A stretch of DNA of 64,000 nt from a virus. The translations under genes were made by a program, and so were the position numbers. The DNA is taken from positions 33,957 through 97,956 of the IMG/VR virus record IMGVR_UViG_3300022602_000051. One strand, 5' to 3'. The notes under the pieces were generated by a model, which did no database searches, was not told the origin of the DNA, and saw only the letters and a program-made list of their open reading frames with translations. Below are positions 51,177 through 52,367 of this stretch, one piece after another (the first letter of the stretch is position 1; the number at the start of each line of letters is the position of its first letter).

Positions 51177-51209
51177 CTCGCCCTCACTGATGGAGAACGA
51201 TGGGGCGAG
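51177..51209 (-). other. 3'-UTR hairpin whose loop is complementary to the gene's own RBS
   Basis: Stem CTCGCCC/GGGCGAG; the loop contains TTCTCCATCAGT, the exact complement of the leader ACTGATGGAGAA (52344-52355). Confidence 0.7.
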
Positions 51210-51210
51210 A

Positions 51211-52338
51211 TTAGTCCTTCAACGCTGACAGAATATAGTCACCGTTTTTAGCATGGAACTCTTTGTAGTTCGTCAGCTTGCTTGTCTTCATAGGCAGCTT
51301 GTGGATACGCACAAGGGTAGAAATCATCATAACTTGCAATTCTGTATCCATGAGATCAAGGAAAAAGCGAATTACATTGTTGATTTCTTCATGCCAAGCA
51401 GTGTAGTCTGCATCCTTGATGCGTTCGCCACCACGACGAATATAGCTATCCTTCAACTCATAACAAGTTGAAACTGTGAGTGAATACTTTGCACCGATAT
51501 CTTTGGCTTTGAGTTCCTTGATCTTGCCAGCAAGGATGTCGCTTGGGTTTGGCATCTGGCTTGCAACCTTACGGTGTGCAGAGAACTTCAGTGCAACACC
51601 TTCACCAACAGTGCCCGCAACAAGGTCATTAAGTTCAGTTTCGTTGATGTCTTCTTGCAGAAGATCGCTCACGAATGACCAAGAACGAGGCGTGGCAAAA
51701 GATGCACCACTTGAGCGTGGGTCAAAGTTGAACAAGTCACCCTTGTTACAAGTCACATAGGCAACAACATCGGGATTGATACCATGGTTCAATGCCCATT
51801 CATTCCATGACTCGAAGTCAACACGCAAGTTCAAGTGAACAAAACGGTTGGCAAGCGGCGATGGCATACGATACACAACACCACGGTCAGTATCGCGGTT
51901 ACCAGCGGCAACGATAACAACATTGTCAGGAAGTTCATAAGTGCCGACACGACGATTAAGAACCAATTGATATGCGGCAGCTTGCGTTGCAGGTGCGGCA
52001 CTGTTCATTTCATCAAGGAAAAGCACCACAACAGGATACTTTGCGGCTTCCTCGGCAGTAGGCAAGTCAGGCGGTGCATTCCACATCGCATTGCCCACAG
52101 TAGGATTGTAGTAGAGAACACCTTTAAGATCGGAAGGGTCCATGAGTGCAAGACGCAAGTCATACAACTTACCGCCCATGCTTTCGCAAATATCAGCAAC
52201 CAATTCAGATTTGCCGATACCAGGCGCACCCCACAAGAAGATTGGGCGTTTACGCTTCATACATACCATAATTTCACGCTTTGCGGATGCAAGCGTAACT
52301 GTCCGAACTTCGGACACTGCATCATTGACTTTAGCCAT
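51211..52338 (-). CDS. MoxR-like AAA+ ATPase
   Basis: Walker A GAPGIGKS; Walker B LFLDEMN; AAGNR; ANRF; TPRSW. Confidence 0.85.
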   Translation of the reverse strand: MAKVNDAVSEVRTVTLASAKREIMVCMKRKRPIFLWGAPGIGKSELVADICESMGGKLYDLRLALMDPSDLKGVLYYNPTVGNAMWNAPPDLPTAEEAAKYPVVVLFLDEMNSAAPATQAAAYQLVLNRRVGTYELPDNVVIVAAGNRDTDRGVVYRMPSPLANRFVHLNLRVDFESWNEWALNHGINPDVVAYVTCNKGDLFNFDPRSSGASFATPRSWSFVSDLLQEDINETELNDLVAGTVGEGVALKFSAHRKVASQMPNPSDILAGKIKELKAKDIGAKYSLTVSTCYELKDSYIRRGGERIKDADYTAWHEEINNVIRFFLDLMDTELQVMMISTLVRIHKLPMKTSKLTNYKEFHAKNGDYILSALKD

Positions 52339-52367
52339 TTGTTTTCTCCATCAGTTGACTATAACTT

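Follow-up and report, generated by a model that had tools for sequence, protein, structure and literature searches.

In this work we analyse a 64,000-nucleotide stretch of viral DNA (positions 33,957 to 97,956 of the IMG/VR record IMGVR_UViG_3300022602_000051; hereafter the window, with coordinates counted from its first base) and, within it, a gene for a MoxR-like AAA+ ATPase that carries, right behind its stop codon, a hairpin whose loop is the exact reverse complement of the gene's own ribosome-binding site (RBS), 1.15 kb upstream on the same mRNA. It is our belief, held with a probability of roughly 0.7, that this loop serves in cis as a lock between the 3' and the 5' untranslated regions (UTRs), closing the RBS of its own message in a way that resembles icaR of Staphylococcus aureus. 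Namely, because loop and leader change together across related phages, the self-silencing fold is probably a conserved one.

All genes in this part of the window lie on the minus strand. Read along that strand, the ATPase unit runs from its promoter through a leader, the ATG at 52338, the open reading frame (ORF), the stop codon TAA, a single T, the loop hairpin and a terminator to the next promoter (51135), and its individual features are the following.

52368..52395, minus strand: sigma-70-type promoter driving the ATPase unit (TTGACA, then 16 nt of spacer that include a TG ahead of the -10 hexamer TATATT; 11/12 in a consensus scan)
52339..52362, minus strand: 5' leader TATAGTCAACTGATGGAGAAAACAA, about 24 nt, with its start placed about 6-8 nt past the -10 hexamer
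52344..52355, minus strand: RBS segment ACTGATGGAGAA, complementary to the 3' loop, with the Shine-Dalgarno (SD) motif GGAG at 52346-52349
51211..52338, minus strand: gene for the MoxR-like AAA+ ATPase, 375 amino acids, stop codon TAA; Pfam AAA, AAA_3 and AAA_5 above cut-offs
51177..51209, minus strand: loop hairpin, 1 nt past the ATPase stop codon, with a 7-bp stem, CTCGCCC (51203-51209) and GGGCGAG (51177-51183), around the 19-nt loop CATCGTTCTCCATCAGTGA (51184-51202)
51186..51197, minus strand: anti-RBS segment TTCTCCATCAGT inside the loop, reverse complement of the leader 12-mer
51143..51171, minus strand: intrinsic terminator of the unit, a separate G+C-rich hairpin followed by a T run

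An initial annotation of this DNA had claimed both the CTCGCCC/GGGCGAG hairpin behind the ATPase stop codon and a 12/12 pairing of its loop with the gene's own leader (52344-52355), and both claims hold to the letter: the hairpin reads as described at 51177-51209, and the exact 12-mer ACTGATGGAGAA is found at both sites. What is more, there are exactly two copies of this 12-mer in the window and likewise exactly two in the whole 97,956-base record, one at 51186-51197 on the plus strand (that is, TTCTCCATCAGT on the mRNA strand) and the other at 52344-52355 on the minus strand, between the end of TATATT at 52368 and the start codon at 52338. The predicted terminator lies beyond the anti-RBS hairpin, which would therefore be inside the ATPase transcript, and the 3'UTR as a whole folds as two hairpins with a z-score of -3.7. 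By itself, a 12-nt inverted repeat anywhere in 64 kb is unremarkable. The present match goes beyond chance because it connects the loop of a hairpin with the RBS of its own gene, is unique in the record and recurs with changed sequence in relatives. In particular, among the 45 strong-SD genes of the record, the longest complement between leader and 3'UTR is 12 nt for the ATPase and 4-8 nt for every other gene. Across this set, the mean duplex energies of cognate and non-cognate pairs are equal and the ATPase is the sole outlier, and for this reason we reject the idea that such pairing is a genome-wide habit of the phage.

The elements that take part in the pairing are also the ones that are best conserved. 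In a set of 22 unique close relatives, with ATPases 84-100% identical at the amino acid level, conservation amounts to 99.5% for the leader stretch TATAG..GGAGAA, 99% for the 3' arm of the hairpin and 96% for its loop, as compared with 79% for the promoter spacer, 75% for third codon positions, 72% for the terminator and 69% for the spacer between SD and ATG. Judged by these alignments, leader, loop and 3' arm are under purifying selection. The surroundings behave differently from one element to the next: the promoter hexamers are kept in relatives and the spacer between them is variable, while the terminator diverges freely in sequence but in every case folds into a hairpin with a T run behind it. 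The hairpin itself is kept in all close relatives, and other G+C-rich stems stand in its place in three further lineages (L103, L119 and L120). The linker between stop codon and stem varies between 1 and 5 nt among relatives, and therefore the hairpin is no coding extension; read-through of the stop codon, suggested by the 8 open codons that follow the TAA, fails for the same reason, since such a linker breaks the frame. Separately, on one contig (L020:4190-4245) an inverted copy of the hairpin, together with the last codons of the gene, is folded back at the terminator at the contig end. We do not take this inverted second hairpin for biology, as it is most likely an assembly artefact.

The strongest argument comes from the way in which loop and leader change. 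With both aligned on their common core, GATGGAG in the leader and CTCCATC in the loop, the lineages compare as follows.

Window: leader ACT 5' of the core, loop AGT 3' of the core, stem CTCGCCC/GGGCGAG, 12 contiguous pairs
L103: leader TTTGAT, loop ATCAAA, stem TGCCCCCC/GGGGGGCA, 13 contiguous pairs
L120: leader TGAT, loop ATCA, 10-bp stem TAGGGCCCAT/ATGGGCCCTA, 11 contiguous pairs
L119: leader TT, loop AA, stem GCCGCCC/GGGCGGC, 9 contiguous pairs

In other words, stems are swapped outright between lineages and the pairing is retained, and an insertion of GAT in the leader is mirrored by an insertion of ATC in the loop. The initial annotation had named covariation of loop and leader in related phages as a check, and the pairing passes it even where the stem sequence has been replaced, as in the last three lineages. 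On this comparative ground, the pairing is under selection, with compensatory change on its two sides.

The same picture emerges at much larger distances. Homologues of the ATPase were collected from IMG/VR and JGI metagenomes, the leader was taken as -34 to +4 and the 3'UTR from the stop codon to +60, and cognate pairs of leader and 3'UTR were compared with non-cognate ones using one representative for each of 78 protein clusters. Many lineages at only 52-65% amino acid identity have an anti-RBS sequence of their own, unrelated to the others: TGGAGGTGCC in L143, TTGGAGGTGC in L142, AGGAGCAACTT in L168, GACTCTCACAT in L211, AGTTAGGAGCA in L146, GAACACAGCCC in the L185 group, CTTTCCAAGG in L203 and CTCACAGGAA in L039/040. 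The complement, 8-13 nt long in these relatives, always falls over the SD, the spacer between SD and AUG, or the AUG itself. On the 3' side it occupies one of three sites, namely the loop of a hairpin behind the stop codon, a single-stranded segment right after the stop codon (sometimes including it), or the apical part of the terminator; in L168, L039, L173 and L198 it follows the stop codon directly and there is no hairpin. The core claim that the loop pairs with its own RBS is thus supported both by the covariation of loop and leader and by these lineage-specific complements.

Quantitatively, a perfect complement of at least 9 nt is found in 15/78 cognate clusters versus 0.93% of non-cognate pairs, and one of at least 10 nt in 12/78 versus 0.28%. 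The duplex-energy null computed across clades has a mean of -11.2 and a 1% tail at -21.3 kcal/mol, and the cognate pairs of positive clades range from -17 to -27 kcal/mol. Complements of at least 9 nt reach the own leader in 43/135 unique loci, as opposed to the leader of the downstream gene in 4/97, and on these counts the downstream RBS is rejected as the partner. The clade L122-L128 is instructive in a different way. Namely, its members form a panhandle of about 20 bp with several G.U pairs, and the pairing is worth -22.0 kcal/mol on the mRNA strand versus -14.4 kcal/mol on the opposite one; the G.U pairs and the strand-specific energy place the constraint at the level of RNA, on the sense strand. 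In L124 and L128, the stop codon (within TAAGTT(T)C) is itself paired, its partner being the spacer immediately upstream of the AUG (GAAACTTA), and the extreme 5' end of the leader pairs with the 3'UTR segment that follows, which would therefore bring start and stop codons side by side. As a separate observation, many leaders of still other distant relatives (loci L042-L078) carry TATAGGCACTGA near the presumed transcript start.

Folding calculations agree with this reading. For a 1220-nt transcript, the minimum free energy (MFE) structure and the centroid structure both close the leader on the loop. The mean unpaired probability of the RBS segment GATGGAGAA is 0.81 for a transcript cut at the stop codon as against 0.02 for the complete one, and it stands at 0.82 if only the 12-nt anti-RBS is shuffled, so that in thermodynamic terms the RBS is predicted to be occluded by this one element. 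In L168, the corresponding values are 0.50, 0.01 and 0.18.

Taken together, these findings suggest the following course of events. The ATPase gene would be a self-contained unit, with its own promoter, leader, coding sequence, hairpin and terminator, and its RBS would be free for as long as the gene is still being transcribed. With the 3' end transcribed, the loop would pair in the cell with the SD-containing leader 1.15 kb upstream on the same mRNA and hide the RBS, and repression, as opposed to stabilisation or re-initiation, would be the presumed effect. Ribosomes would then load freely only on nascent transcripts or upon transient opening of the duplex, and completed transcripts would re-initiate poorly and possibly be exposed to decay. 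In this way the element could act as a timer, limiting the output that each transcript of a strong promoter can give.

It should be noted that a number of points weigh against this interpretation. To begin with, about two thirds of the homologous lineages examined lack any such complement, the feature is absent from the cultured phages PA5oct, Atu_ph07 and PBECO4, and the clusters on which the statistics rest were formed by k-mer similarity and are not a tree. Another cultured relative, Phosso, has a weak 7-nt match only. Among members of the close clade, the duplex drifts uncompensated at its flanks, leaving 8-10 bp; in L007 one pair has changed on both sides, from C to T in the leader and from G to C in the loop, in L015 the leader has changed from C to A opposite an unchanged loop, and eight lineages carry an insertion of CA in the loop. 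What is more, conservation extends to loop positions left unpaired by the own leader (CATCG, and the G in front of TTCTCC), which points to an additional constraint, for example a target in trans or a protein. As for the folding, pairing of loop and leader with the stem kept is a pseudoknot, which the programs used cannot score, and under the nested model the strong hairpin of L103 stays intact and no effect on the RBS is predicted. The full-length MFE folds of other lineages do not discriminate, both on account of the pseudoknot and since A/G-rich leaders pair trivially with U tails. Finally, the transcription start, the terminator and the monocistronic nature of the transcript rest on consensus matches.

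Among the alternatives, the one that survives best, unlikely as we consider it, is that hairpin and terminator together make up a small RNA (sRNA) derived from the 3'UTR, whose anti-SD loop acts in trans, either alone or beside a role in cis. Its targets would be leaders of strong promoters with (GAT)GGAGAAC, i.e., those of the arfA-like/p229 unit, of the partner gene of the ATPase (a VWA protein, see below) and of the gene starting at 57143. The initial annotation had proposed two of these pairings, and both are present in the letters: the arfA-like leader GATGGAGAAC complements GTTCTCCATC of the loop over 10/10 positions, and the leader of the gene at 57143 holds TGGAGAAC, an 8/8 match.

53713..53722, minus strand: leader GATGGAGAAC of the arfA-like/p229 unit, candidate second (trans) target, 10/10 with the loop

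Several lines of evidence favour such a view. The best predicted targets of the loop in the record are its own leader, at -19.9 kcal/mol, and the arfA-like leader, at -19.7 kcal/mol, and the invariant loop G before TTCTCC pairs with the C of GGAGAAC in other leaders and not with the own leader. In L041, where the own leader makes only 8 contiguous bp with the loop, the loop CGTCTCCATC and the arfA-like leader GATGGAGACG differ from GTTCTCCATC and GATGGAGAAC of the window by two compensatory pairs, so that the pairing still spans 10 nt. A homologue of p229 (in the window, the gene coupled to arfA) is preceded in L119 by a second leader, TGATGGAGAAC, and the VWA leader of several relatives, with TGGAGAAC(G), gives 8-9 nt. 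Moreover, a seed followed by a terminator hairpin and a U tail is the layout of known 3'-derived sRNAs such as SdhX (PMC6393394). That said, the compensation in trans is seen in one lineage only and amounts to a coincidence of about 1 in 16, and the common leader core may stem from a kinship of promoter-leader cassettes and not from a common regulator. Other lineages retain just 5-8 nt of pairing with the arfA-like leader, as opposed to 10-12 with their own, and the lineage-specific extensions (ACT/AGT, TTTGAT/ATCAAA) follow the own leader. Nor does an internal promoter or a processing site speak for a short 3' RNA. Support for a trans-acting 3' RNA is thus limited, and it may coexist with the lock in cis.

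Some features of these neighbouring leaders deserve mention in their own right. The arfA-like gene is a 38-amino-acid ORF within 53591-53759 on the minus strand, with a match to Pfam ArfA (E 9e-10), a promoter of its own and the leader TATAGATGGAGAAC, and its stop codon overlaps the start of the next gene, of 229 amino acids; the L119 homologue of the latter has the same leader core and no arfA ORF in front of it. No match to the arfA-like protein was found in the L103, L119 and L120 records, a result that is uninformative given a 38-residue query and fragmentary records. The other TGATGGAG sites in the same three records comprise three inside coding sequences and one real second leader. More generally, the leaders of strong promoters between 51100 and 57200 (minus strand) share TATAG, a few nucleotides and then (A/T)(T/A)GGAGAAC.

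Somewhat less likely again is a variant in which the anti-RBS is a gate operated by the terminating ribosome and, in addition, silences in trans the GGAGAAC leaders of the arfA-like/p229 unit and of the VWA gene. It takes its cue from the fact that in many lineages the anti-RBS element starts 0-25 nt after the stop codon and that in L124 and L128 the stop codon takes part in the pairing. A ribosome arriving at the stop codon would melt the helix between 5' and 3' ends and free the adjacent RBS, so that each termination would license approximately one new initiation, and an mRNA that has run out of ribosomes would lock shut. The loop, either free or on a released 3' fragment, would then silence the GGAGAAC leaders, and a single element could in this manner coordinate a small early regulon.

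It is improbable, in our view, that some protein (be it a nuclease, a translational repressor of the phage or the ATPase itself) binds or processes the conserved hairpin and that the complementarity of this hairpin to the leader is incidental. Stem and loop are indeed nearly invariant in the close clade, including the loop positions that are unpaired with the leader, as one would expect of such a site. A protein site, however, leaves unexplained both the joint change of loop and leader in lineages with otherwise unrelated stems and loops and the complements that directly follow the stop codon with no hairpin at all (L168, L039, L173, L198).

More improbable still is the possibility that the two 12-mers are inverted repeats at the level of DNA, either twin operators of a DNA-binding protein or recombination sites of a cassette that can invert or move. 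Repeats of this kind would stay matched as well, the two copies enclose exactly one gene, and short inverted repeats can serve site-specific inversion, as in the fim switch. Nevertheless, about 135 distinct loci all have promoter, leader, gene and hairpin in a single orientation, the repeat always covers the RBS, and only one of its copies sits inside a hairpin of RNA type, with a co-varying stem; the L122-L128 match, furthermore, needs G.U pairs and is specific to one strand, neither of which would make sense in duplex DNA. Least credible of all is chance, according to which any CTCC loop would match any SD: the 12-mer with up to 2 mismatches does have 10 matches in the window versus 4.25 expected, and short complements of 5-8 nt between SD and terminator are common, but conservation, covariation and the enrichment in cognate clusters (15/78 versus 0.93%) contradict it.

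How does the proposed cis lock relate to known systems? The 3'UTR of icaR is about 390 nt long and that of the ATPase about 65 nt by comparison, and a 12-bp helix alone is short for RNase III. In icaR, the 3'UTR pairs, through the motif UCCCCUG, with the SD of the same mRNA, blocks initiation and creates a substrate for RNase III, and its authors termed it a singular example (PMC3868564). The ATPase unit shares with it a pyrimidine-rich anti-SD in the 3'UTR, complementary to the SD region of the same mRNA, and the same proposed block of initiation, possibly followed by decay. It differs in having no sequence relationship to icaR, in belonging to a phage gene for a MoxR-like ATPase, and in presenting its anti-RBS in a hairpin loop that begins 1-5 nt past the stop codon. 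In addition, the helix is short and perfect (8-13 bp), as opposed to long and imperfect in icaR, and the support is phylogenetic covariation over many lineages, as opposed to experiment.

A second comparison is with hok of plasmid R1, where a stem between the tac and fbi elements joins the 5' and 3' ends (PMC9841398). In both cases, 3'-5' pairing keeps the full-length mRNA closed and untranslatable (for the ATPase, according to our proposal), and nascent or truncated forms differ. In hok, however, the partner of the 3' end is the extreme 5' end, and another, internal element sequesters the SD, whereas the 3' element of the ATPase would pair with the SD itself. What is more, hok is a type I toxin, activated by 3' processing and coupled to an antisense RNA, and the ATPase unit is not of this type: its product is an AAA+ ATPase, and a promoter scan found no strong antisense promoter near its leader. 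With hbs of Bacillus subtilis the unit has in common a long-range helix between 5' and 3' UTRs, a short monocistronic mRNA and a strong SD (PMC5737220), yet there the helix is described as chiefly governing ribonuclease access and stability, and not as masking the SD. The RNA phages Qbeta and MS2 are similar in that distant segments of a phage RNA control the access of ribosomes to an initiation site (PMC2978339), but there the RNAs are single-stranded genomes and the coupling is between cistrons, while here the lock would join the 3'UTR and the 5'UTR of a single mRNA of a double-stranded DNA (dsDNA) phage.

Of particular relevance are reporter experiments in B. subtilis, in which anti-SD-like 8-mers pair in vivo with an RBS that lies hundreds of nucleotides away, with inhibited translation and enhanced decay as the outcome (Gill et al. 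2025 preprint, PMC12697547), and therefore the physics that we propose for the ATPase lock works in vivo. Those 8-mers were synthetic substitutions, and natural genes otherwise avoid such sequences, which are depleted from them, whereas the anti-SD of the ATPase is positively conserved and co-evolves with its RBS. Natural long-range interactions that link the 5' and 3' parts of a bacterial mRNA are very few, and the same preprint lists just three that have been reported (PMC12697547). The initial annotation was aware of no such mechanism in phage early genes, a statement to be amended in one point: the mechanism as such is already known from icaR (PMC3868564). Our literature search, made in one library, found no such element described for a dsDNA phage, which is not proof of absence. 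What is new, as far as the compared sequences go, is a natural family of putative RBS locks that undergo compensatory evolution and are displayed in a hairpin loop beside the stop codon.

Compensatory evolution supports the principle in over a dozen lineages of one phage gene that are distinct in sequence, with an echo in its VWA partner, and provides a comparative data set from which the rules of such locks can be read, including display in a loop versus a single strand, distance from the stop codon and length of the helix. It also suggests that dsDNA phages cap the output of strong early promoters by means of anti-RBS elements in the 3'UTR. Given its small size, its sigma-70-type signals and its canonical SD, the unit should lend itself to tests in E. 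coli or in a cell-free system despite the phage and its host being uncultured.

Regarding the source of the DNA, the 97,956-base virus record to which the window belongs has a completeness of 29% (CheckV), and a close relative lies on a 338-kb contig (IMGVR_UViG_3300032334_001259), from which we conclude that the source is an uncultured jumbo phage. The nearest cultured relative of the ATPase is that of the Pseudomonas jumbo phage PA5oct, at 46% amino acid identity. No near-identical DNA to the window was found in the phage collection searched, and Rfam returned only three matches, with E of 5 or more and far below gathering scores, none of them on the hairpin.

The gene that follows the ATPase is its usual partner, encoding a DUF2201 metallopeptidase-like/VWA protein.

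49822-51084, minus strand: VWA/DUF2201 gene, partner of the ATPase gene
49788..49824, minus strand: hairpin after the VWA/DUF2201 stop codon, stem TGAGACTG/CAGTCTCA; CTCCTAT within its loop complements ATAGGAG (51092-51098) in the gene's own leader

In L007 and L009, the VWA gene carries TCCTATCCAT right after its stop codon and ATGGATAGGA in its leader, a match of 10 nt, and in L021 a loop CTCC-T-ATGTTT matches AAACAT-T-GGAG; in other relatives the gene is followed by a terminator only.

Two further observations concern the rest of the early region. A second perfect 12-nt inverted repeat, TGGCACTGGCAA, occurs at 58879-58890 and 59160-59171, i.e., in two copies in the window versus 0.03 expected, and may be another long-range mRNA pairing. 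Lastly, at 56348-56383 (minus strand), TTGACA and TATATT are separated by 17 nt and the ATG of a 5'-3' exonuclease gene lies only 7 nt past the -10 hexamer, a spacing which suggests that the mRNA of this gene is leaderless or nearly so.

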